Origin: an uncultured Dehalococcoidales bacterium
Lineage (GTDB): Bacteria > Chloroflexota > Dehalococcoidia > GIF9 > UBA5629
Assembly (NCBI GenBank): GCA_964582065.1
Contig: CAZOQG010000001.1
Location: forward strand, 1-50,528
Length of the DNA stretch: 50,528 nucleotides
Direction of reading: 5' to 3'
Shown one piece after another: positions 1 to 30,883 of the stretch; position 1 is the first letter of the stretch, and each line of letters opens with the position of its first letter. Made by a program: the position numbers and the translations under genes. Below the pieces are notes generated by a model. That model was given only the letters and a program-made list of their open reading frames with translations. It was not told where the DNA came from and ran no database searches.

Positions 1-1049
1 TCCCCGCAGAAATCATTACTGCGCTTGAACTGGTCCCGTACCGGACATACGGAGATATGACTGAGCCGGTCACTGATGCCGATAGGGCCTTACCCGCAGC
101 ATTCTGTCCTATTATGCGCACCTGTCTCGATTGCGCATTGAAAGCCAAAGATGATTTCCTGGATGGGATAGCCGCCACTCATTCCTGCGACCCTCAAGAG
201 AAAACGGCTCGTGTCTGGCAATCCTACATTAGCTATCCTTATTTCCACTTTATGGATATGCCCGGCACGGTTCGTCCAGAGGCCCTGGAATATTTCAAAG
301 GACAGTTAAACGATTTCAGGAAGACGTTGGAGTCCTTCGCAGGAAAAGAACTGTCCCCAGCCAAACTCAAGGCAGCCATTGAGGCTCATAATCAACAGCG
401 AGCCCTGGTAAGACAACTACACGAGCTAACCAAGCCGGCTCCGCCTCTCATATCGGGAACAGAAATCGTTCAAGTGACAAAGGCTTTGATGAGCCTCCCT
501 GTTGCCGAGGGCAACGAGTTACTGGCGCAAGTTGCAGCCGAGATCAAGGAGCGCGCAGGTGGCCCGGAAAAGAAACCAGCACGGCTTCTCGTCTGGAGCG
601 GCTCTCTAGATAACGCAGACCTCATGCAAATACTCGAAGCTGGAGCAAATGTGGTGATGAATGAGAGTTGCGGCGGCATCAGAGCCTACAGAGCCGACGT
701 GAAGCTCACTACTGACCCGCTAGATGGACTGGCTCGTTACTATCTAGAGGAAATCACCTGCGCCCGCACCTTTAGGGAAGCTGTCCTCGGTGAGACCAGC
801 AAAGATTATAAGAAAGACCTGGAAAGCCGGTTCGGCTATCTGAAAGGCCTTGCCAAGGAATGGAATGTCAATGGCGCTATCCTTATACTCGTCAGGTATT
901 GTGACCCCTTCGCTTTCGAAATGCCAAATCTCAAGGACTACTTCGATAGCCTCGGCATTCCCAGCACCTACATAGAATACGATTACACGGAGGGAGCCTT
1001 GGCACCGTTGAGAACAAGGGTTGAAGCTTTCCTGGAGACAATTAGCTAG
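1..1049 (+). CDS. 2-hydroxyacyl-CoA dehydratase / benzoyl-CoA reductase family, non-ATPase (HgdB/BcrB-like) subunit; 5' end cut by the window edge
   Basis: Frame 3 is open from nt 3 (PAEIITALELVPYRTYGD precedes the first Met at 57), so the gene starts upstream of the window. It has the general HGD-D-family look with conserved Cys contexts (AFCPIMRTC, HSCDP, ESCGG, RYCDPF). Two BcrAD/BadFG ATPase genes follow directly. Stop TAG at 1047-1049. Confidence 0.7.
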   Translation, partial: PAEIITALELVPYRTYGDMTEPVTDADRALPAAFCPIMRTCLDCALKAKDDFLDGIAATHSCDPQEKTARVWQSYISYPYFHFMDMPGTVRPEALEYFKGQLNDFRKTLESFAGKELSPAKLKAAIEAHNQQRALVRQLHELTKPAPPLISGTEIVQVTKALMSLPVAEGNELLAQVAAEIKERAGGPEKKPARLLVWSGSLDNADLMQILEAGANVVMNESCGGIRAYRADVKLTTDPLDGLARYYLEEITCARTFREAVLGETSKDYKKDLESRFGYLKGLAKEWNVNGAILILVRYCDPFAFEMPNLKDYFDSLGIPSTYIEYDYTEGALAPLRTRVEAFLETIS

Positions 1050-1071
1050 AAACGCCGCTCAAGAGGTCCGC

Positions 1072-1914
1072 TTGTATTTCGCCGGGGTCGACATAGGTTC
1101 CACCATGACCAAGACTGTCCTTATGGACACGAATGGCAAGGTTTTGTCTGCCATCAAAGGCCCTACCGGCCCCGAACACCGCCAGCTAGCCAACGAGGTT
1201 ATGAAAATGGCGCTGGAGCAAGCCGGACTGCAACTTGAGGACATCTCCTACGTTGTAGCCACCGGCTACGGGCGGCTAAACGTCCCTTTCGCTGACCGCC
1301 AGATTACAGAACTGACCTGTCATGCCAGAGGGGTATCGAGCTTGTTTCCCAATGTCAGAACGGCCATTGATATCGGCGGGCAAGATGCTAAGTGTATGAA
1401 GATTAATAACGGCAAGCTGCTCAACTTTGCTATGAACGACAAATGCGCCGCCGGGACAGGCAGGTTCCTGGAAGTCATTGCCGCCACACTGGGTATCAAG
1501 CTGGAGGACCTCGGGGATATCTCCCTGAAATCTGCCAAAAAGGTTGAGATTAGCAACCTTTGCACCATCTTTGCCCAGCAAGAGATAGTAGCTCGCCTTT
1601 CCCAGGGAGAAAAGCCGGAAGATATCATAGCTGGGCTTCATGATGCCCTGTCTAGCAGGGTGGCAGCATTGGCGCACAGGCTCAAGATAGAACCTGATGT
1701 GGTGCTTACGGGAGGCGTGGCAAAAAACCTTGGAATAGTCAAGGCCATGAAGGAAAACTTGGGCTGCGAACTCCTCGTTCCAGAAGACCCGCTTCTCACC
1801 GGGGCGATGGGCGCCGCTATCCTGGCAAAGGAACTGTCATCGGCGGCAACAGCCAAAGGCGAGCCTGTCTCGACAAAACCACGTCGCCTGGAAAAGGCTA
1901 CCTTCTTCCAGTAA
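1072..1914 (+). CDS. BcrAD/BadFG-type ATPase subunit (reductase/dehydratase activator family), copy 1
   Basis: Motifs GVDIGSTMTKTV, DIGGQDAK, NDKCAAGTGRFLE and a second cluster Cys (SNLCTIF). The ORF is open from TTG 1021. I prefer TTG 1072, which lies 5 nt behind AAGAGG (1061-1066) and gives MYFAGVDIGST. Confidence 0.85.
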   Translation: MYFAGVDIGSTMTKTVLMDTNGKVLSAIKGPTGPEHRQLANEVMKMALEQAGLQLEDISYVVATGYGRLNVPFADRQITELTCHARGVSSLFPNVRTAIDIGGQDAKCMKINNGKLLNFAMNDKCAAGTGRFLEVIAATLGIKLEDLGDISLKSAKKVEISNLCTIFAQQEIVARLSQGEKPEDIIAGLHDALSSRVAALAHRLKIEPDVVLTGGVAKNLGIVKAMKENLGCELLVPEDPLLTGAMGAAILAKELSSAATAKGEPVSTKPRRLEKATFFQ

Positions 1915-1927
1915 GGAAGCAACCTAA

Positions 1928-2722
1928 ATGGCTTGGTTTATGGGCATCGACATCGGCTCGGCGTACAGTAAGGGAGTCATAACCAGGGATAACCAACTTT
2001 CCGCTTACTACGTGATTCTCTCCGGAGCCAATTACCGAACGGCGGCCGAGACGATAAGACAAGAGCTCTTGGCAAAGGCTAGCCTGGCTCAGGATGATAT
2101 AACCGATACCGTTGCCACCGGTTCTGGCGCCGGCAATGTCTACTTCGCCAGCCAGAAGGTCAGTGACATAGTCTGTACTGCCAGAGGCACAAACAGCGTC
2201 TTCCCCACCGCCAGGACAGCAATCGACGTGGCAGGCCAATCCACAAAGGTGATGCGGATAGATGCTCAGGGGCTTGTGGTCAACTTCGCCGTTAGTGAGA
2301 AGTGTGCTGCCGGAAGCGGCCGATTCATTGAGGTTATTGCCAACGTGCTGCGAATGGATTTGCAGGACTTCGGCCTGCTTGCCCTCAAGTCCAAGAATCC
2401 TATCACTTTCAGCACCGGCTGCGCTGTTTTCGGCGAATCAGAGGCTATCACCAGAGTCAGCGAAGGCATCCCCAAAGAGGATATCGCCGCCGGCGTCAAC
2501 AAAGCCTTGGCCGACAAGGCCTCCTCCCTGATTAAAAAGATCAAGCTCGAAGAGCCATGCGCTATCTGCGGCGGTGGTGCTCTCAACGTCGGCCTCATCA
2601 CGACCATAGAGCATGAGCTGAACATCCAGCTACTGGTGCCTCGTGAACCCCAAATCATCACCGCCCTGGGCGCTGCCATAACCGCCAAGACATCACCTGT
2701 CGCTCCAAATCCTAAATCTTAA
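1928..2722 (+). CDS. BcrAD/BadFG-type ATPase subunit, copy 2 (distinct paralogue)
   Basis: Motifs GIDIGSAYSKGV, DVAGQSTK, SEKCAAGSGRFIE and STGCAVFGE. Starts 13 nt after the previous stop. Clearly diverged from copy 1. Confidence 0.85.
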   Translation: MAWFMGIDIGSAYSKGVITRDNQLSAYYVILSGANYRTAAETIRQELLAKASLAQDDITDTVATGSGAGNVYFASQKVSDIVCTARGTNSVFPTARTAIDVAGQSTKVMRIDAQGLVVNFAVSEKCAAGSGRFIEVIANVLRMDLQDFGLLALKSKNPITFSTGCAVFGESEAITRVSEGIPKEDIAAGVNKALADKASSLIKKIKLEEPCAICGGGALNVGLITTIEHELNIQLLVPREPQIITALGAAITAKTSPVAPNPKS

Positions 2723-20833: not shown

Positions 20834-20977
20834 AGTATGGAGACGCTTGAATACCGTTTTGCTAAGTAGGCGTTTCCGCGTAGAATCTCCGGGATATGAT
20901 TTCCTTGCCTCTCCAAGAAATTGAAATCATCAAGAACTCATGGTAGATTATGGCATGGCAAAAAGGGAGGAGCATGC

Positions 20978-23344
20978 GTGAAAGAACATGTTAAGACCCT
21001 TGAGGAGAAAGAAGGATCGCAGCGCTTCAAGCGCATAAGGCAGGAACTTCTCTCCACGCCGGTCCACTTGTGCCCGGAGCGGGCATATCTCGTCACCGAC
21101 TACTTTAGGCATCACGATAATCCAACTGAGCCCATGGTGATTCGTAAGGCCAGGGCCTTGCGCCATGTTCTGAGGCATAAATCAGTGCGCATCTATCCTG
21201 ATGAGCTGATCGTGGGCAACGTAGGCAGCCAGCGCATCTCAGCCCTTATCCAACCTGAGTTGAGCGGAGTTTTCATGAGCGGAGACTTGCTGTGGATAGA
21301 TAAGAGGAAGACAACTCCTTTGCGCATCCCCTGGCGTGACCGTCTGAAGTTGCTCTTCCGCGTCTTCCCTTACTGGCTCGTTCGCAACATGCCTTTCCGG
21401 GCCTTCTTTCCGCGTTTCCGCCAGTTGTTCCGCTACGTGGTAGAACAGCTCAACGCCACCTATTACCTGATCAACGAGGCCGGCGGCATCGGACACTTTC
21501 TTCCCAACTATGAAAGGATGCTCAAGTTGGGTGTAAAGGGTTATCTGGAGATTATGGTGGGAAAAGAAGGAGACCTCCACCGCGCGGCGCGCATCGCCTG
21601 TGAAGGCCTGGTTGACTTTGCCACCCGCTTGGCGCAGGAGGTCGAGCGTTTGGCTGCTGCGGAAGAAAATACGGCCCGCGCCGCTGAACTCAACGAAATA
21701 GCGCGTATCTGCCACAAGGTCCCATCTGGCCCTGCCGAGACCTTTCATGAAGCCTTGCAGTCCCTATGGCTGACCCACATGGCAGTGAGCCTGGAGGGAC
21801 TCAACTCCGCTATCTCCTTCGGGAGGATGGACCAGTATCTTTATCCCTATTACCGGCGTGACCTGGAGGAAGGTAGAATCAACCCCGAGCGAGCCCGCGA
21901 GCTTCTGCTTTGCTTCTCCGCCAAGGCCACCGAGCACGTCTTCCTGCTCTCGGAGGGAGTCAGCCAGTACCATGGTGGCTACCTGGTGGTGCAGGCAGCG
22001 ATAGTAGGAGGCATGGACCGAGAGGGAAAGGATGCCGTCAACGATCTTACGTACCTCTTTCTCGACGTAATGGAGGAATCCGGCCTCCGGGACCCCAACT
22101 ACCAGGCGCGAATTCACGCCGGTTCTCCGGATAGTTACCTGAGACGAGTGGCGGATGTGGCGAGGAAAGGCAACGGGGTACCGGCCCTCTTCAATGACGA
22201 GGCTGCTACAGCCTCCCTTGTGGCACACGGCTATCCTGTGGAAGAGGCACGCAATTATGGGGTGGTGGGGTGCGTGGAGCTGGCCTTGCCCGGGAAGAGC
22301 TTCTTGTCCACGGATGCCGCGCTGTTCAATCTTCCTCTCTGCCTCGAGCTGGCACTCAACCGTGGAAGGCGGCTCAAGGGTCGCCAGCAAGTGGGTGCTG
22401 CCACCCCGGATTCTGCCTCTTTCACCAGTATTGACCAGGTGATTGAAGCCTTCCGGGCGCAGGTGGAGCACATGGTGGCACGTATGATAGGTGACCTTCA
22501 GGTGATCGAGAAAGGGAATAGTGATTACCACCCCACCCCCTTCTCCTCGCTGCTGGTTGACGGCTGCCTGGAGTCAGGACAAGATGTCACTGGCGGCGGA
22601 GCCCTGTATAACTCCAGTGGTATCCAGGGAGTAGGGGTGGCAGACATGGCGGATTCACTGGCGGCTCTAGATGAGGTGGTGTTCCAGCGCCACAAATATA
22701 CCATGCCTCAGGTGCTGAAGGCCCTGCGTGACGACTTCGCTTCTGCCCGTGAGGTACGGGCCGAGCTACTCAAGGCGCCAAAGTACGGGAACGACCATAC
22801 CCTGCCCGATGACTATGCCAATCTGGTAGTACGTAGTTTCCACTCGGCCCTTGCTCGACACCGCAACATGCGTGGAGGCTCCTACGTGCCCGGGTTTTAT
22901 TCCGTGACATGCCACGTGGCCTTCGGGCAGCGAGTGGGCGCCTTGCCCAGCGGAAGAAGGGCTGGAGAACCATTCGCAGCTAGCTTGGGAGCGGCCAATG
23001 GGCGGGACCGCCTGGGGCCCACTGCCCTGCTCAACTCAGTGGCGCACATAGACTCCACATTGTCGCCCAACGGTTACGCCCTGAACCTTCGTTTCGATTC
23101 TCGCACCCTGGCCGGTGATCAAGGGGTAAATATCCTGACCGCTTTGGCGAAAGGCTTTTTCGAATCAGGGGGGATGGAAATGCAACTAAACGTGCTCGAC
23201 CCTGACATGTTGGAGGACGCCCGCCGTAATCCGGGGAAGTACCCGGGGCTGGTAGTACGCGTATCAGGTTATTGCGCTTACTTCGATGATCTTCCTGACG
23301 CCGCAAAACAGGACATCATCGCCCGAACCTGCCTCGAGGTATGA
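20978..23344 (+). CDS. Glycyl radical enzyme 1 (PFL2 / dehydratase-like family), substrate unknown
   Basis: Glycyl loop VVRVSGYCAYF (Gly codon 23267-23269). Thiyl loop VVGCVELALPG (Cys codon 22271-22273, Glu 22277-22279). GTG 20978 is 5 nt behind GGGAGGAG. Confidence 0.9.
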   Translation: MKEHVKTLEEKEGSQRFKRIRQELLSTPVHLCPERAYLVTDYFRHHDNPTEPMVIRKARALRHVLRHKSVRIYPDELIVGNVGSQRISALIQPELSGVFMSGDLLWIDKRKTTPLRIPWRDRLKLLFRVFPYWLVRNMPFRAFFPRFRQLFRYVVEQLNATYYLINEAGGIGHFLPNYERMLKLGVKGYLEIMVGKEGDLHRAARIACEGLVDFATRLAQEVERLAAAEENTARAAELNEIARICHKVPSGPAETFHEALQSLWLTHMAVSLEGLNSAISFGRMDQYLYPYYRRDLEEGRINPERARELLLCFSAKATEHVFLLSEGVSQYHGGYLVVQAAIVGGMDREGKDAVNDLTYLFLDVMEESGLRDPNYQARIHAGSPDSYLRRVADVARKGNGVPALFNDEAATASLVAHGYPVEEARNYGVVGCVELALPGKSFLSTDAALFNLPLCLELALNRGRRLKGRQQVGAATPDSASFTSIDQVIEAFRAQVEHMVARMIGDLQVIEKGNSDYHPTPFSSLLVDGCLESGQDVTGGGALYNSSGIQGVGVADMADSLAALDEVVFQRHKYTMPQVLKALRDDFASAREVRAELLKAPKYGNDHTLPDDYANLVVRSFHSALARHRNMRGGSYVPGFYSVTCHVAFGQRVGALPSGRRAGEPFAASLGAANGRDRLGPTALLNSVAHIDSTLSPNGYALNLRFDSRTLAGDQGVNILTALAKGFFESGGMEMQLNVLDPDMLEDARRNPGKYPGLVVRVSGYCAYFDDLPDAAKQDIIARTCLEV

Positions 23345-23421: not shown

Positions 23422-24564
23422 TTATGATTCTATTCTAACCTTGTCAGGAAGGATTTGACCCAAGAGCTTTATCGCTCCATCCACCATATCATCCAGGATT
23501 TGCTTGGCAGGCTTCGTATCATTAAGCATTCCCACAATCTGCCCTGTAGGCGCACACAGGAGGTCGTGCCTCTCCACCTCCGCCAGGCTGTCAATGAGAT
23601 CGGCCATGAGTAGCACCTGCGTCACCATAGGTAGAGCAGGCATCCCCGACTTATCAAAGGCCTCTTGTATTGGGTTCTTTATCTGGCGCAGGGTTTTGCC
23701 TGTCCACACCCTGCTGACTGCGGTGCCCTCTTCAGTAGCTTCCGTCATCATCTTCCGATGGATATCGGTGACATTCGCCTCCTCAGCAAAGAGGAAGGCA
23801 GTGCCTACCCAGACTCCAACAGCTCCCAGTGCCAGAGAGGCGACAAGTCCCCTGCCATCGCCTATCCCCCCGGCAGCCAAAACCGGGGTAGGTGACACAG
23901 TATCTACGACCTGGGGAATCAAGGCAAAGGTGCTCACCCTGCCAGTGTGGCCTCCCGCCTCATGTCCCTGAGCCACGATGAAGTCGGCACCCGCCTTCTT
24001 GTGGCGCAGCGCACCCCGTACATTGCCAGCCAGCCCCAGTACCCTCATTCCTCCTTCATGAGCCATGGGTACCACCCATTCTAGAATCCCCACGGCTGAG
24101 CAGAAAAGAGGAACACCCTCCTCTAGCATCACTTGTATCTGCTTCTTGGAGTGCTCCTCAGTGAAGATGAACTCTTGCTTAGTCTCAGCAAGAGTCACGC
24201 CATAGTCTTCCGCCAACTTCTCCACAAAGTCGATATGCTCTTTAGGGACAAATTTCCTTTTCATTTCCGCCAAAGACATATCTGCAGGTGGCGCCTCAGT
24301 AAGGGCGCTGGGAAGCAACACGTCAACCCCAAACGGCTTGTCAGTGAGGCTCTTGATCTCCCTAATCTCGGTACGCAGTTCATCCAAGGGCAGACCAGTA
24401 GCCCCCAGAACACCCATTCCACCGGCGTTGGACACGGCACCAACAAGCTTCGGCTGCGCTGAGTGACCCTCACCAGCCAGGCCCCCCATGCCAGCAAGCA
24501 GAATGGGGTACTCAATACCCAGCATGTCGCAGAGTTCGGTATGAAGTATCTTCCTCTTATTCAC
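23422..24564 (-). CDS. Nitronate monooxygenase / FabK-like FMN-dependent oxidoreductase (NMO family)
   Basis: YPILLAGMGG, NAGGMGVLG and AQGHEAGGHTG. GTG 24564 sits behind AAAGGAG. The ORF-track start at 24642 is the TTG of the -35 box. Confidence 0.85.
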   Translation of the reverse strand: MNKRKILHTELCDMLGIEYPILLAGMGGLAGEGHSAQPKLVGAVSNAGGMGVLGATGLPLDELRTEIREIKSLTDKPFGVDVLLPSALTEAPPADMSLAEMKRKFVPKEHIDFVEKLAEDYGVTLAETKQEFIFTEEHSKKQIQVMLEEGVPLFCSAVGILEWVVPMAHEGGMRVLGLAGNVRGALRHKKAGADFIVAQGHEAGGHTGRVSTFALIPQVVDTVSPTPVLAAGGIGDGRGLVASLALGAVGVWVGTAFLFAEEANVTDIHRKMMTEATEEGTAVSRVWTGKTLRQIKNPIQEAFDKSGMPALPMVTQVLLMADLIDSLAEVERHDLLCAPTGQIVGMLNDTKPAKQILDDMVDGAIKLLGQILPDKVRIES

Positions 24565-24614
24565 CTTTTCTCCTTTCTCTTCTTGCTCTCGGAACCCTGT
24601 ACCCCGCAAATCAC

Positions 24615-24642
24615 AGTATAACACGCGGACAAGCAGTGTCAA
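24615..24642 (-). promoter_or_regulatory. Sigma-70-type promoter of the NMO-like gene
   Basis: On the minus strand: TTGACA (24642-24637), 16-nt spacer, TATACT (24620-24615). The GTG start is about 50 nt downstream. Confidence 0.55.
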
Positions 24643-24686
24643 CAGAAGGATGTAGCCTCTCTCAATCCGTGACTAACGATGCCAAC

Positions 24687-24716
24687 TTGCATTTGCGGGC
24701 AGACATGCCATAAAAT
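24687..24716 (+). promoter_or_regulatory. Candidate promoter of the GRE-2 / activase / crotonase unit
   Basis: TTGCAT (24687-24692), 18-nt spacer, TAAAAT (24711-24716), about 95 nt upstream of ATG 24812. Confidence 0.45.
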
Positions 24717-24811
24717 CGCGGTAGGGGTTTGGACGAGAGGGGAAAGACAAAACCTGAAGTCAAAAGTCGAGCTTTTCGCACCAGACAGACTCGAATAAAC
24801 AACGGGAGGAC

Positions 24812-27211
24812 ATGATGTCTACCAGAACTCAAACGCTTATGGTAAATACTCCCATAAAAGCCCAACAGATTGCGCTAGCAGAGCTTAGTGAGGATGTAAG
24901 GGCGACGAGACCTGGCTTCAAATGGTCTCTGGACCTGGAGAGGGCAAGATTGCTAACAGAATCCTACAAGCAAACCGAAGGGGAGCCCATGGCTCTCAGG
25001 AGAGCAAAGGCCTTGGCACACATCCTGTCAAATATGACCGTATATATCCGGCCGGGTGAGTTGATTGTAGGTAACTATGCATCTGATTCAGACTCTGTCC
25101 CTTTCTACCCTGAGTTCGCCTGGAAATGGATAGTAAGGGAGACGGCACCAGGGGCAGTTTACAGCGGTATGTTGACCGACGAAGGCAGGGAAGAGTTGAA
25201 GGAAATATGTAGCTATTGGGGTGATTTAGCCATACACCACAGGCTGAGAACATATCTGCCAGAAGACTTGGCCGATATGTTCTGGATTTTTAATTGGGAG
25301 TCTACCACGCCAAACTATGAGAAGATCCTCGAGATGGGCTTGAAGGGCATTATTGAAGATGCCAGGGAGAGAAAGACGAAGTTGGATGGGGAGTACATGG
25401 CGGAGACTATCAATGGTGTAGACTTTGTTAAGAAGAAGGACTTCCTGGACAGCGTTATCATTGCCCTGGATGCTGTGATTAAGTGGAGTAAGAGATATGC
25501 AGCGCTAGCCAGAGAGCTAGCTGAGACCGATGATGACCGGCTAAGGAAGCAGGAACTAGAAACTATAGCCAATACCTGCCAATGGGTGCCGGAAAACCCT
25601 GCCCGAATATTCCAGGAGGCGCTGCAGTGCTATTGGTTCATTCACCTCATCGTCAACTTCATTGAACTGCCCCAGGTAGGCAGCGGAATAAGGTTTGACC
25701 AATGCTTCAATCGCCTCTATGAGAAAGACGTACGGGAAGGAAGGCTGAACAGAGAGCAAGCTCAAGAACTGGTCGAGTTCTTGTTTGTGAAATTCCAGGA
25801 GACTGGCTTCTTGCACGCACCTATATGGTCAGGTTTTGGAGGCGGTGCCCTGGGGTTCCAAACGGTTACCATCGGTGGGACAGACTCCGAGGGCCGCGAT
25901 ATCACCAATGAAGTGAGTTACATAGTCTTGGACGCTACTAAAAGCGTAACAGCTATAGTCCCTCCGTTGGCTCTAAGATGGCACGATGGAATGCCCAAGA
26001 AGTTAATTGATAAGGCTATTGAGGTGCTGGCCTCAGGAATGCCTCAGCCGGCTATCTTCAACGACAAAGTGAATGTATTGAGATTGGTCAGCCTCGGTTG
26101 CTCCATCGAAGATGCCAACAACTACTCCATCAACAATTGCATGGTGCCGACTATCCCGGGCAAGAACTTCAATCATATGTCAGCCTGGGCTAATGGCATA
26201 CCTGTTGCTCTATGCCTGAATCATGCCTTGGGAGTAAGCCCTGTAGCGTTATATAAGAGGGCCGGTGATACCACGATAGACCCGGCGACGCTAAGCTCGG
26301 TCGATGAATTGCTTGGCGCCACGGTTGAGAACTACAAATGGCTTGTGCACCGGCTAGTTCTGATAGCAAACATTGCTGATGCTCTTTATCAGGAATATGC
26401 GCCAAGGCCATTCCTATCAAGCGTGATTGATGACTGCATTGAGAAAGCTCAGGACGTTAGAGATTGGAACTATACGCCAGATTACAGAGATATTACTCTC
26501 TTCGGCCTTAACACTGTCGCCGATTCCTTGGCAGCTATAAAGAAGCTGGTATTTGATGAGAAGAAGATATCTATGGAGAAACTGGTCGAGGCTTTAAGGA
26601 GCAATTGGCAGGGTTACGAAGACCTTCACAGGGCGTGTCTTGGAGCTCCGAAGTTTGGCAATGATGATGATTATGTCGACTCAATATCACGGGAGCTCGG
26701 AAAGAGAATTTCTGAAGAGACCCAGAAATGTAAAACAAACCGGGGGACTCCTGTTGTTGTAGATGGCACAGCGGCAACCGCCTGGTGGAGCTTTGGGCGT
26801 GTCTGTGCCGCTACACCAGATGGCAGAAGCGCAGGCGACCCATTCAATGACGGGACGATTTCGCCGATGGCTGGCAGGGACAAGAAAGGGCCTACAGCAG
26901 TGCTGAAATCGGTTTCAAAGGTTGACCCACTAATAAGTTGGAATCAGCTGTTCAACCAGACTTTCATGCCCCAATACCTTGTAGGCCACAATGCCGAGCT
27001 GTTCGCCCAATATCTAAAGACCTTCGGCGATCTGGGTATTCACCACGTTCAGTTCACCACGGTTGGTAGAGAGACGTTGGAAGATGCCCAAAAGCATCCG
27101 GAGAAATACCCCAGTCTGATGGTGAGGGTGGCCGGGTTTGCTGCCTACTTCATAGACCTCGACAAGAACTTGCAGGATTCAATCATTGCCAGAACCCCCC
27201 AGTGCCTCTGA
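24812..27211 (+). CDS. Glycyl radical enzyme 2 (PFL2-like) with an atypical Cys loop, substrate unknown
   Basis: Glycyl loop MVRVAGFAAYF (Gly codon 27134-27136). Thiyl loop YSINNCMVPTIPG (Cys codon 26138-26140). RBS GGGAGG upstream of ATGATG. Confidence 0.9.
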   Translation: MMSTRTQTLMVNTPIKAQQIALAELSEDVRATRPGFKWSLDLERARLLTESYKQTEGEPMALRRAKALAHILSNMTVYIRPGELIVGNYASDSDSVPFYPEFAWKWIVRETAPGAVYSGMLTDEGREELKEICSYWGDLAIHHRLRTYLPEDLADMFWIFNWESTTPNYEKILEMGLKGIIEDARERKTKLDGEYMAETINGVDFVKKKDFLDSVIIALDAVIKWSKRYAALARELAETDDDRLRKQELETIANTCQWVPENPARIFQEALQCYWFIHLIVNFIELPQVGSGIRFDQCFNRLYEKDVREGRLNREQAQELVEFLFVKFQETGFLHAPIWSGFGGGALGFQTVTIGGTDSEGRDITNEVSYIVLDATKSVTAIVPPLALRWHDGMPKKLIDKAIEVLASGMPQPAIFNDKVNVLRLVSLGCSIEDANNYSINNCMVPTIPGKNFNHMSAWANGIPVALCLNHALGVSPVALYKRAGDTTIDPATLSSVDELLGATVENYKWLVHRLVLIANIADALYQEYAPRPFLSSVIDDCIEKAQDVRDWNYTPDYRDITLFGLNTVADSLAAIKKLVFDEKKISMEKLVEALRSNWQGYEDLHRACLGAPKFGNDDDYVDSISRELGKRISEETQKCKTNRGTPVVVDGTAATAWWSFGRVCAATPDGRSAGDPFNDGTISPMAGRDKKGPTAVLKSVSKVDPLISWNQLFNQTFMPQYLVGHNAELFAQYLKTFGDLGIHHVQFTTVGRETLEDAQKHPEKYPSLMVRVAGFAAYFIDLDKNLQDSIIARTPQCL

Positions 27212-29161: not shown

Positions 29162-30358
29162 CTATTTCTCCTGGTCTTTTAACTTCGATACGCGGACGGT
29201 GGGGCTCTCCTCAATTCTGCCGTATTTCATCACTCTGTCAATCAAGTCCTTGCTCCACAGGCCTTTTTCGACAATGCTAATAAGTGCTGTCGTATCAAGG
29301 TCCGAGACTTCTCCCCATTTGCCTGCCTCTTTTATTATCCCGTCCAGGTCCAGGCGCTCAGCATCGCTCTTACGTGGGAATTTGAGTTTGTCAGCGAATG
29401 TAACCCTCACCTTGCAGTCGCTGCCTTTTATTATCTCGACCTGTTCTCTTCTGGCGTAATCAAGAATCGCCTCCCTCACCTTCTCCATTTCGGCCTCTAT
29501 CCCGGCCTCTTGATTCTTCAGCTGTGCATATTTGTTGGCTAGCACGACCCCGGGCTCGTTGAGGTATTCGTTAACCGGCAGAGCTTCCACCTTGTAGAAA
29601 TGCTTTCTCAGCGGGCACAAATCAGGATATTCGCACCAGTTGCATAACGCGGACTCGTTTGGCAGGAAATCCTGGACAGACTCTATTTCATCGATTAACC
29701 TCTTAGTGCTTTCAATCAAGCCTGAAATGGCTTCCGGAGTGCGGTAGGAAACCAACTCCGCATCAAAAGCCACGTAGTGCCAGACAAGCCTGATATTCTC
29801 AACATCTGGCCATCTCCTCTGGACTCCAATCTGATATAAGCCAAGCTGCCTATCCTTATCGGCATCTTCCTGACCAGGCATATGGGACGACGTCTTATAG
29901 TCGTGAATCTCATGAGTGCCGTCCTGAGTTCGTGACAGCCGGTCTATGTAACCCTGCATTTTGTACTTATTCTCGTCGTCCAGCGAGAACCCCATTCTCA
30001 TCTCAGTCTGTATCGTTATATCTGCATCAAACGGTGCATAGCGGTTGTAGTAATTCTCAATCAGCTTCTCGCCCAGGGATCTGTAGTGCTCTTGGGTCAG
30101 CTCCTGCTTCATGATAACGATCGAGTCGTTCCAGTTTTCCTGCCATATTCTATTGTAGAAAGCAAGCAAATCACTCAGGCTGTTCGTCTTGGTAAACCTG
30201 AGGTCGTCATAGCACTTCTTCAAGGTGTCATGAACCCTCAACCCCAGGAAACCCTCGACGCCTTCCATGTCTCGCTTAATCCTGTCCCGGTAGCGAAGCT
30301 TGTACTTCAAGGGACACTGCTCATAGATACCTAGCTGTGAATCAGAATAAACCGCCAT
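29162..30358 (-). CDS. Cas4/AddB-like Fe-S PD-(D/E)XK nuclease with an uncharacterised C-terminal domain
   Basis: N-terminal Cys (YEQCPLKYKLRY), GYIDRL...HEIHDYKTS (D...D-x-K) and CNWCEYPDLC (C-x2-C-x5-C). The roughly 130-aa C-terminal extension has no motif I recognise. Confidence 0.8.
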   Translation of the reverse strand: MAVYSDSQLGIYEQCPLKYKLRYRDRIKRDMEGVEGFLGLRVHDTLKKCYDDLRFTKTNSLSDLLAFYNRIWQENWNDSIVIMKQELTQEHYRSLGEKLIENYYNRYAPFDADITIQTEMRMGFSLDDENKYKMQGYIDRLSRTQDGTHEIHDYKTSSHMPGQEDADKDRQLGLYQIGVQRRWPDVENIRLVWHYVAFDAELVSYRTPEAISGLIESTKRLIDEIESVQDFLPNESALCNWCEYPDLCPLRKHFYKVEALPVNEYLNEPGVVLANKYAQLKNQEAGIEAEMEKVREAILDYARREQVEIIKGSDCKVRVTFADKLKFPRKSDAERLDLDGIIKEAGKWGEVSDLDTTALISIVEKGLWSKDLIDRVMKYGRIEESPTVRVSKLKDQEK

Positions 30359-30379
30359 ATCAACTCCTGCTTGAGCTGC

Positions 30380-30883
30380 CTAAACCCGGCGTCCAGCCAA
30401 CCTCTCCCTCAAGGCCTTCAGGTTGACCACATCCTCCTGATTGTACTGCAGTAGCAGAGCCAGGGCATTCTGATTACCGCCCTTCCGGTACTGCCACCAC
30501 AGCTGCACTGCCTCGAATCCGCCGACGCCTTCCAATTCCCTGCGAATTCCCAACTGCCGTTCAACTGCCTTGAAACCACCGAACAGGTTGTTTCTCCAGC
30601 AGTCATACATCAGGTCGTGATGGTAGAATTCAGTGGCTAGGTCTATCCCGAGAGAAACAGCAATGAAGGGAATGTCGAATCTGCTGCCGTTGTAGGTATA
30701 GATTGTGTTTACACCCCTCAGGGCTGTTACAAGGTTGCCTCTGGTCACCTCTTCGCCTACTAATTGAATAAGCTCACTGTTTCTGCCATGGCACCGGTAA
30801 ATGCCGATTACGGTTATGGCATCATAATACCGAGACAAGCCGGTGGTCTCAATATCAAGGTAGGCATCAACCAACTGCCTCAT
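30380..30883 (-). CDS. RNase-H-fold 3'-5' exonuclease, YprB/MrfB-like
   Basis: DEDD-type motifs YLDIETTGL, YTYNGSRFDIPF, HHDLMY and YNQEDVVNL. 167 aa. Lies 21 nt upstream of the PD-(D/E)XK gene on the same strand. Confidence 0.75.
   Translation of the reverse strand: MRQLVDAYLDIETTGLSRYYDAITVIGIYRCHGRNSELIQLVGEEVTRGNLVTALRGVNTIYTYNGSRFDIPFIAVSLGIDLATEFYHHDLMYDCWRNNLFGGFKAVERQLGIRRELEGVGGFEAVQLWWQYRKGGNQNALALLLQYNQEDVVNLKALRERLAGRRV

Follow-up and report, generated by a model that had tools for sequence, protein, structure and literature searches.

An undescribed catalytic-cysteine loop marks a cross-domain clade of PFL-like glycyl radical enzymes

Glycyl radical enzymes (GREs) form a superfamily that, with its unannotated clades, is already well known, and the reaction class of a GRE is usually predicted from its catalytic loop. 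In the eliminases (GD, PD, HpfG, HypD, HpyG (8ID1), HpzG (8IOF), CutC, IseG (5YMR), IslA and HpsG (6LON)), this loop reads C-x-E, with the Glu hydrogen bonded to a substrate hydroxyl, and the isomerases HplG, YbiW and PflD carry the same motif; all 13 characterised eliminases and isomerases considered in a 2026 review retain it (PMC13450708). The GRM3 propanediol dehydratase 9RCO is counted here as such by its identification, its loop not being displayed. PFL and TdcE have two adjacent catalytic Cys residues (C-C), HPAD has C503 with E505 at Cys+2 and also a small Fe-S subunit, and IAD has the catalytic Glu502 (PMC13450708). Three characterised classes have no Glu at Cys+2, namely the X-succinate synthases (XSS), PAD and AAD. 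The loop reads V-L-C-M-S-P-G in benzylsuccinate synthase (BSS) and M-A-C-M-S-P-N in MasD, G-G-C-V-L-H-Q-V-P-G-K in AAD (7e7l), and C482-x-Q484 in PAD, where Q484, W495 and Y691 are essential (PMC13450708). Comparable essential residues are not defined for AAD. The known Glu-less GREs catalyse C-C bond formation or C-C bond cleavage (PMC13450708). Here, we compare these systems with GRE-2, a PFL-like GRE encoded on a 50,528-nucleotide stretch of DNA from an uncultured Dehalococcoidales bacterium (contig CAZOQG010000001.1; the whole stretch is called the window below), which also encodes a second GRE, GRE-1.

The Cys loop of GRE-2 differs from all of these motifs. Window positions 26123..26158 (TACTCCATCAACAATTGCATGGTGCCGACTATCCCG) translate to Y438-S-I-N-N-C443-M-V-P-T-I-P, in which N442-C443 offers no second Cys of the formate-lyase type and no C-x-E. 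The initial annotation had described this N-C-M-V loop as lacking both Glu and Cys-Cys and had assigned a G-C-V-E loop to GRE-1 at 22268..22279; translation confirms both, as do the alignments for GRE-2. It had also allowed that the catalytic Cys might be misidentified, a possibility that we checked. HMMER pairs the GRE-2 segment 'ysinnCmvptipgk' with 'ygiigCvepqkpgk' of glycerol dehydratase (GDH), where C433 and E435 are catalytic, and in the MAFFT alignment C443 shares its column with BSS C493 and MasD C477, V445 falling in that of BSS S495 (the BSS and MasD sequences were taken from PDB alignments of a BSS-like representative). Since the HMMER and MAFFT columns match the Cys of GDH, BSS and MasD, C443 is the correct catalytic Cys.

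Judged from sequence, no characterised GRE class shares the N-C-M-V loop: eliminases and isomerases have C-x-E, PFL C-C, XSS C-M-S-P, AAD C-V-L and PAD C-x-Q, and the idea that GRE-2 might simply belong to an established subfamily with this loop finds no match among them. The closest known motif is C-M-S-P of XSS, which likewise has Met at +1 and a Pro at +3, while the residue before the Cys and that at +2 differ. With respect to HPAD and IAD, V445 stands in place of the Glu, and there is no small-subunit gene at GRE-2. A 64-residue query around the loop retrieved no solved chain with an N-C-M-V-type loop from the PDB, the best local match being GDH, and a tblastn search of plasmid records for annotated bssA returned only PFL and eliminase-type GREs. 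A literature search for the S-I-N-N-C-M-x-P clade, covering Dehalococcoidia, sequence similarity networks and PDB codes, brought up no study characterising it.

Among 5.8 billion proteins searched, 705 matched at E<=1e-50, and the best 120 of these, with 62-96% identity to GRE-2, were examined. INNCMVP is present in 117 of these and the remaining 3 read IL[TS]CM[VI]P; with such conservation over this range of identity, the loop is not a chance occurrence. Within the family alignment, M444, R559 and T653 are invariant, and N441, N442, V445, H455 and W459 nearly so. A separate, exhaustive HMMER search of 1.84 billion cluster representatives yielded 1919 matches at E<=1e-30, of which the best 150 were aligned. 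Glu at Cys+2 is present in 79 of the 148 nearest representatives, and all 21 nearest 50%-identity clusters (P0121-P0141, 39-64% identical) are without it. The bare loop observation is thus only moderately surprising, because a Glu-less Cys+2 is common among uncharacterised GREs. The nearest clusters have the loops D-S-C-M-I-P, S-N-C-M-W-P and N-H-C-M-Q-P, and genome loci add clades with N-N-C-M-Q-P and N-N-C-M-F-P at 45-51% identity to GRE-2. The clade of GRE-2 is delimited by the loop S-I-N-N-C-M-[V/Q/F]-P. What is new here is an invariant and previously undescribed loop that marks a broad cross-domain clade, in which XSS-like and eliminase-like traits are mixed and accessory subunits are absent.

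The clade is widespread, with hosts among sediment bacteria and Asgard archaea. Its members all come from metagenome-assembled genomes (MAGs) and are named there in general terms, as 'pyruvate formate lyase family protein', 'formate C-acetyltransferase' or 'hypothetical'. Bacterial hosts belong to Chloroflexota (Dehalococcoidia, Dehalococcoidales), Thermodesulfobacteriota, Syntrophobacteria, Syntrophaceae and candidate division NPL-UPA2. The archaeal hosts are Asgard MAGs (Hermod-, Loki-, Hod-, Thor-, Prometh- and Jord-archaeal), and the proteins from Hermod-, Loki-, Hod-, Thor- and Promethearchaeota MAGs are 62-66% identical to GRE-2. A 96%-identical relative (GCA_030605165.1) preserves the entire local gene order, and at 84% identity the nearest named genome is an uncultured Dehalococcoidales MAG.

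Besides the loop Cys, GRE-2 has the other traits of the superfamily, namely a 10-stranded barrel fold (by TM 0.74-0.81) and a neighbouring activase. Residues 772-794 (RVAGFAAYFIDLDKNLQDSIIAR) match in full the GRE fingerprint RVxG[FWY]x6-8[FL]x4Qx2[IV]x2R, as quoted in PMC13450708, with G775 as the radical Gly. The activase reaches 361.8 bits against TIGR02494 (cut-off 174), and its start overlaps the 3' end of the GRE-2 gene by 26 nt. We take GRE-2 to be an intact and functional catalytic subunit of an uncharacterised PFL-like GRE clade, for which activation by the adjacent activase is predicted. That it is instead a non-catalytic or decaying paralog is highly improbable: a homolog seems split or shortened in two streamlined genomes, but the GRE-2 reading frame is full length, the Gly fingerprint is intact in every full-length homolog (116 of 116), the loop does not vary between phyla, and the activase is coupled in 22 of 23 loci.

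Table 1. Positions of GRE-2, its active-site elements and further genes in the window.
Feature	Position	Strand	Basis or remark
HGD-D/BcrB-like gene, then two BcrAD/BadFG-type ATPase genes	57..2722	+	about 22 kb upstream of GRE-2
GRE-1, second GRE, with GIGH and G-C-V-E-L motifs; no own activase	20921..23344	+	GCVE at 22268..22279
NMO/FabK-like FMN oxidoreductase, divergent from GRE-2	23422..24642	-	PF03060 in relatives
GRE-2, PFL-like glycyl radical enzyme, 799 aa	24812..27211	+	ORF, PDB matches, AF2 model
F160-N-W-E-S-T-T166; eliminase GxGH motif (GDH H164) deleted and replaced	25289..25309	+	1r8w alignment: 5-residue gap, S164 opposite H164
Co-varying site, residue 291	25682..25684		
Cys loop Y438-S-I-N-N-C443-M-V-P-T-I-P; V445 at Cys+2 replaces Glu	26123..26158	+	C443 codon 26138..26140
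H455-M456; M456 in the column of GDH D447 and BSS R508 (fumarate-binding Arg)	26174..26179	+	HMMER, MAFFT
Co-varying site, residue 456	26177..26179		
Y558-R559, family-invariant; R559 aligned with BSS W613 (fumarate contact)	26483..26488	+	alignment
Glycyl radical fingerprint R772-V-A-G775-F...R794	27125..27193	+	regex match; G775 codon 27134..27136
Co-varying sites, residues 774-777	27131..27142		
Radical SAM GRE-activating enzyme, 329 aa	27186..28175	+	TIGR02494
Enoyl-CoA hydratase/isomerase family protein, 263 aa	28340..29131	+	56-80% orthologs beside GRE in six Chloroflexota loci
PD-(D/E)XK/Cas4-like nuclease (398 aa) and RNase H-like/RecB-like gene (167 aa)	29162..30883	-	just downstream of the GRE-2/activase/enoyl-CoA hydratase block; kept in the 96% relative

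By overall similarity, GRE-2 is closest to the dehydratases. HMMER matches to PDB chains give E=6e-138 for GDH and E=3e-106 for BSS, and the bit scores are 464 for GDH, 352 for Archaeoglobus fulgidus PflD/PFL2 (2f3o), 336 for AAD, 198 for HPAD and 127 for PFL. Against TIGR01774 (PFL2/glycerol dehydratase family), GRE-2 scores 558.8 bits, under the curated cut-off of 678.2, and it falls far under the cut-offs of the decarboxylase models (297 versus 1150 for NF033715, 380 versus 1100 for NF033718). The AlphaFold2 (AF2) model has a pLDDT of 76.9 and a pTM of 0.83, and Foldseek aligns it with all PFL2-like GRE structures at TM 0.74-0.81. Dehydratases are best by E-value in this comparison but BSS is highest by TMq (0.80-0.81), so the structure does not separate the GRE classes. 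Modelling had been put forward in the initial annotation as a way to see the residues lining the pocket; it did reproduce the GRE fold, but the active-site loops are of low confidence.

The glycerol and propanediol dehydratases (1r8w, 5i2a, 9rco) share with GRE-2 not only the best E-values (34% identity, TM 0.78) but also the length and the type of activase, which has ferredoxin-like inserts. It is in the active site that they differ. GDH has G-C-V-E-P where GRE-2 has N-C-M-V-P, and in both the HMMER and the MAFFT alignments H164 is replaced by S164 with a 5-residue deletion, H281/S282 by Q288/V289, E435 by V445 and D447 by M456. The two enzymes also fall into separate clades: GRE-2 lies outside the group of GDH and GRE-1 in 100/100 neighbour-joining (NJ) bootstraps. 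This supports the earlier proposal that GRE-2 uses neither the eliminase nor the PFL mechanism as described. With no Glu at Cys+2, no second Cys and no polar dehydratase residues, we infer that it performs neither a Glu-assisted 1,2-elimination or isomerisation nor chemistry through a PFL-type acyl-enzyme. GRE-2 might still be a 1,2-eliminase or isomerase in which the base is a different residue, H455 or N442 for instance, or is supplied by the substrate. H455 is nearly invariant and aligned with GDH H446, the closest solved relatives by E-value are dehydratases, and the canonical C-x-E enzyme GRE-1 lies nearby and could share the activase. We nevertheless regard such a reading as decidedly unlikely, given that the four polar residues serving GDH in catalysis or binding have all disappeared jointly, with the GxGH deletion among these losses, that C-x-E is kept throughout the thirteen characterised enzymes of these two types (PMC13450708), and that GRE-2 is outside the eliminase clade and under the TIGR01774 cut-off.

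In the NJ trees, the C-M-x-P group as a whole is monophyletic in 93/100 bootstraps. With midpoint rooting, it falls within a Glu-less half that also contains BSS and MasD, a position with no outgroup or likelihood support. A quartet that joins GRE-2 with BSS against GDH with GRE-1 obtains 100/100, but this places GRE-2 outside the eliminases and does not make it the sister of XSS.

The comparison with XSS is informative for the pocket. In BSS and MasD, an Arg (R508 and R492, respectively) holds the distal carboxylate of fumarate (PMC12358834, PMC4848970). Taking the list of BSS active-site residues from PMC4848970, the columns in GRE-2 (BSS residue first) are Y197 W162, S199 S164, I384 F342, L391 F349, L492 N442, M494 M444, S495 V445, R508 M456, W613 R559, N615 T562, I617 F564, Q707 T653, V709 A655 and L711 A657. 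The pocket is accordingly predicted to be mostly aromatic and aliphatic (W162, F342, F349, M444, V445, M456, F564, A655 and A657), with N442, T653 and a single invariant Arg, R559, as its conserved polar groups. R559 may have a role in carboxylate binding.

Position 456 divides the family. Among the 120 homologs it is I, M or V in 88, GRE-2 included, and Arg in 29. The I/M/V456 subclade co-occurs with L-P-Q-V-G-S291 and R-V-A-G-F-A-A, and the R456 subclade (B), which is mostly Asgard, with L-P-M-V-G-D291 and R-V-[A/C]-G-Y-S-A; the co-variation of R456 and D291 could reflect either a salt bridge or a substrate of different charge. As all sister clades (NNCMQP, NNCMFP, DSCMIP and SNCMWP) have Arg in this column, Arg is probably the ancestral, XSS-like state that was lost in the GRE-2 subclade. 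Many subclade B proteins have a Cys immediately before the radical Gly (RVCGY).

These features raise the question of whether GRE-2 is a true XSS, that is, an alkyl- or benzylsuccinate synthase that joins a hydrocarbon radical to fumarate, as proposed for the GREs of Hermodarchaeota. Like BssA/TutD (4pkc/5bwe) and MasD (9o8u), it has a single catalytic Cys with no Gly before it, Met and Pro at Cys+1 and Cys+3, a residue other than Glu at Cys+2, a largely hydrophobic pocket (predicted by alignment for GRE-2) and the same fold (TMq 0.79-0.81, BSS being the top match), and the fumarate Arg is kept by the related clades and the Asgard subclade. The hosts include relatives of Smithella and Syntrophaceae, as well as Dehalococcoidia from hydrocarbon-type settings; in one locus (L003), the genes immediately upstream of the GRE form a cluster for a class II benzoyl-CoA reductase of Bam-like type, and Bcr-like genes are present at the start of our window. 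The Hermodarchaeota GREs have been labelled Ass/Bss on the basis of 29-33% identity to AssA/BssA and a single Cys (PMC8163825); the five proteins of that study are not confirmed as members of the N-N-C clade, and the archaeal GREs are described there with a Gly before the Cys, which differs from N-N-C in GRE-2. Several differences from XSS argue the other way. GRE-2 has M456 in place of the fumarate-binding Arg, Val instead of Ser at Cys+2, and R, T and T for W613, N615 and Q707. The XSS alpha subunit is encoded together with small beta and gamma subunits, to which MASS adds a delta subunit. No genes for beta, gamma or delta subunits are found at GRE-2, and comparison of related loci gave no conserved small accessory-subunit ORF flanking it; a lone small upstream ORF encoding 39 aa with Cys (24679..24798) was considered as an accessory subunit and rejected, having no counterpart in related loci. 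The identity to BSS and MasD is 28-30%, with a bit score below those of the dehydratases, and GRE-2 is some 60 residues shorter than XSS alpha subunits. Taken together, we consider it quite unlikely that GRE-2 is a true XSS.

AAD and PAD/PhdB are, like GRE-2, single-subunit enzymes without Glu at Cys+2, and GRE-2 could correspondingly be an aryl- or alkyl-acetate-type decarboxylase in which CO2 loss is initiated by the thiyl radical without a Glu. AAD, with its G-C-V-L-H loop, has no small subunit (PMC13450708), PAD has Gln at Cys+2, and the invariant R559 could hold the carboxylate. An aromatic-acid context is offered by MarR/TetR regulators, Leu/Ile/Val-type binding proteins, CoA ligases, the nearby benzoyl-CoA reductase genes and, in locus L002, a corrinoid protein with a URO-D methyltransferase, an O-demethylase-like pair. 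However, the loop sequences differ, and GRE-2 has no special affinity for these enzymes, scoring just 336 bits with AAD and 198 with HPAD versus 464 with GDH. By offset from the catalytic Cys, with no PAD sequence aligned, the essential PAD residues Q484 and Y691 correspond to V445 and approximately T653, and a hydrocarbon end product fits poorly with neighbours that process CoA-esters. A decarboxylase of this type is therefore unlikely in our view, if less so than a true XSS.

Neighbouring genes were counted in 23 non-redundant family loci. An activase adjoins the GRE in all but one; next come a crotonase-family gene (9 loci, or 10 with L031), an NMO/FabK-like FMN enzyme (8 loci), an 881-aa fusion of a CrtI/amine-oxidase-like FAD flavoprotein with an FNR-like FAD/NAD module and a 2Fe-2S ferredoxin (6 loci), acyl-CoA dehydrogenase and a Leu/Ile/Val-type binding protein (5 loci each), MarR (3-4 loci), and an 'enoate reductase'-type protein combining OYE and pyridine-nucleotide-disulfide parts (3 loci). 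Orthologs of the NMO/FabK-like protein of the window, at 47-81% identity, occur in seven Chloroflexota loci, and L009 has a distant homologue (27%). In L010, L024 and L025, the genes for NMO, enoyl-CoA hydratase, flavoprotein, GRE and activase are tightly packed, co-directional and operon-like; the window, L007, L008 and L015 have the same gene families in another arrangement, and all of these loci are from Chloroflexota. In the six loci with the unusual 881-aa fusion, all of them Chloroflexota, it is found immediately upstream of the GRE (e.g., L025 7319..9961); the window has no counterpart of it. Among the recurrent neighbours are enoyl-CoA hydratase, ene-reductases of the FabK/NMO-like, OYE and CrtI-like types, CoA ligases and acyl-CoA dehydrogenases, and this context is suggestive of a link to a CoA-ester pathway. 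The N-N-C-M-Q-P sister clade (L040, L043, L086, L048 and L051), approximately 45% identical to GRE-2, has as neighbours a carboxyltransferase, an OadA-like biotin protein, small B12-binding proteins, a sigma-54 activator, OYE and AFOR. The carboxyltransferase, biotin and B12 gene set resembles downstream alkylsuccinate metabolism. Asgard loci have DUF255, nitroreductase and AhpC genes in common, which look like lineage synteny or oxidative-stress genes.

The complete fingerprint, the single loop Cys and the translationally coupled activase lead us to expect a canonical radical relay in GRE-2. The activase would generate the G775 radical, which would pass to C443 as a thiyl radical; the latter would abstract a hydrogen from the substrate and return it later. 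In between, the substrate radical would undergo C-C chemistry that is independent of an acid/base residue, either addition to an activated alkene (an XSS-like hydroalkylation) or a reverse-type step such as beta-scission or decarboxylation. C-C bond formation or cleavage and decarboxylation had been suggested initially, and are reasonable because known Glu-less GREs perform those reactions. The substrate may be hydrophobic and either carry one carboxylate or thioester group itself or be paired with one, and the recurrent neighbours suggest that it or the product would feed a CoA-ester, enoyl-type pathway. We tentatively favour this reading, in which GRE-2 acts on a hydrophobic acid or thioester through radical C-C chemistry that needs no Glu, feeding an enoyl-CoA-type pathway, and put its chances at not quite even.

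Several observations weigh against this proposal. The best E-values, in sequence searches and Foldseek alike, are for dehydratases and not for XSS; the XSS-type Arg is Ile or Met in the GRE-2 subclade, and the BSS fumarate contacts W613, N615 and Q707 are unconserved. In the AF2 model, loops 336-348, 454-458 and 652-657 and the Gly domain are of low confidence, and the tree is a bootstrapped NJ tree built on uncorrected-type distances with no outgroup. Moreover, the activase is the only universal neighbour; outside Chloroflexota, no further context is conserved, so the CoA-ester link may reflect lineage synteny instead of function. The proposed substrate and reaction, which draw on sequence and gene context, are thus a best guess.

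Going further, the S-I-N-N-C-M-x-P clade as a whole could be a new functional class of single-subunit GREs with base-independent radical C-C chemistry, passed on horizontally between Dehalococcoidia, Desulfobacterota and Asgard archaea. Its members might, for example, hydroalkylate a mono-carboxylate or an enoyl-CoA where XSS use fumarate, or act as a new C-C lyase or decarboxylase on aromatic or alicyclic acids. We consider such a class a serious but doubtful possibility.

With regard to the other genes of the window, GRE-1 scores 638.7 bits against TIGR01774, likewise under the cut-off, and none of the equivalog models matches it. The gene call in the 96% relative gives it 788 aa, which makes it probable that the TTG start at 20921 lies too far upstream. 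The divergent NMO gene separates GRE-1 from GRE-2, and three MaoC-type hydratase genes and an SDR gene lie upstream of GRE-1. The genes at the beginning of the window look like part of an ATP-dependent benzoyl-CoA reductase or 2-hydroxyacyl-CoA dehydratase system; the window further encodes a TetR regulator, an ABC importer and a 636-aa AMP-ligase.

Unusual family members and relatives were also seen. Tandem arrays of 2-4 GRE paralogs are found in Dehalococcoidia and Syntrophaceae MAGs (L008 7557..12397, L056 1747..12606, L060 5138..15046, L073 and L077), L008 having two neighbouring N-N-C-M-V-P copies. The two split or shortened homologs, 84-86% identical, are in NPL-UPA2 Unc8 (L031 10001..11685; 133+406 aa) and Ca. 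Psychracetigena (L038 9655..11623; 284+350 aa), and are followed by activase, crotonase, nitroreductase and thiolase genes; they could be pseudogenes or assembly errors. In P0234, P0236, P0256 and P0258, R-V-[A/S]-T-[Y/W] replaces R-V-x-G-[Y/F], which probably makes them aminoacyl radical enzymes whose radical site holds a Thr. P0268 has neither the loop Cys nor the Gly motif.

Unannotated GRE clades, and archaeal GREs especially, have been named as the main gap in the field (PMC13450708). The clade described here comprises several hundred proteins, at least 120 of them at least 62% identical to GRE-2, with hosts among uncultured Dehalococcoidia, among Syntrophia/Desulfobacterota and in five or more Asgard lineages, and its invariant loop is unlike that of any characterised class. 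It can be separated from eliminases and true XSS by the N-N-C-M-V-P loop, by the loss of the GxGH, H/S and D residues, and by whether position 456, which co-varies with residue 291, is Arg or Ile/Met. Given that Asgard GREs have been named alkyl- or benzylsuccinate synthases on weak grounds, the clade bears directly on this contested label. If it does represent a new class, it would be a concrete candidate for the disputed 'Ass/Bss-like' metabolism of hydrocarbons or recalcitrant carbon in Asgard archaea and subsurface Chloroflexota and, should its chemistry prove new, would provide anaerobic carbon cycling and radical biocatalysis with a further type of reaction.

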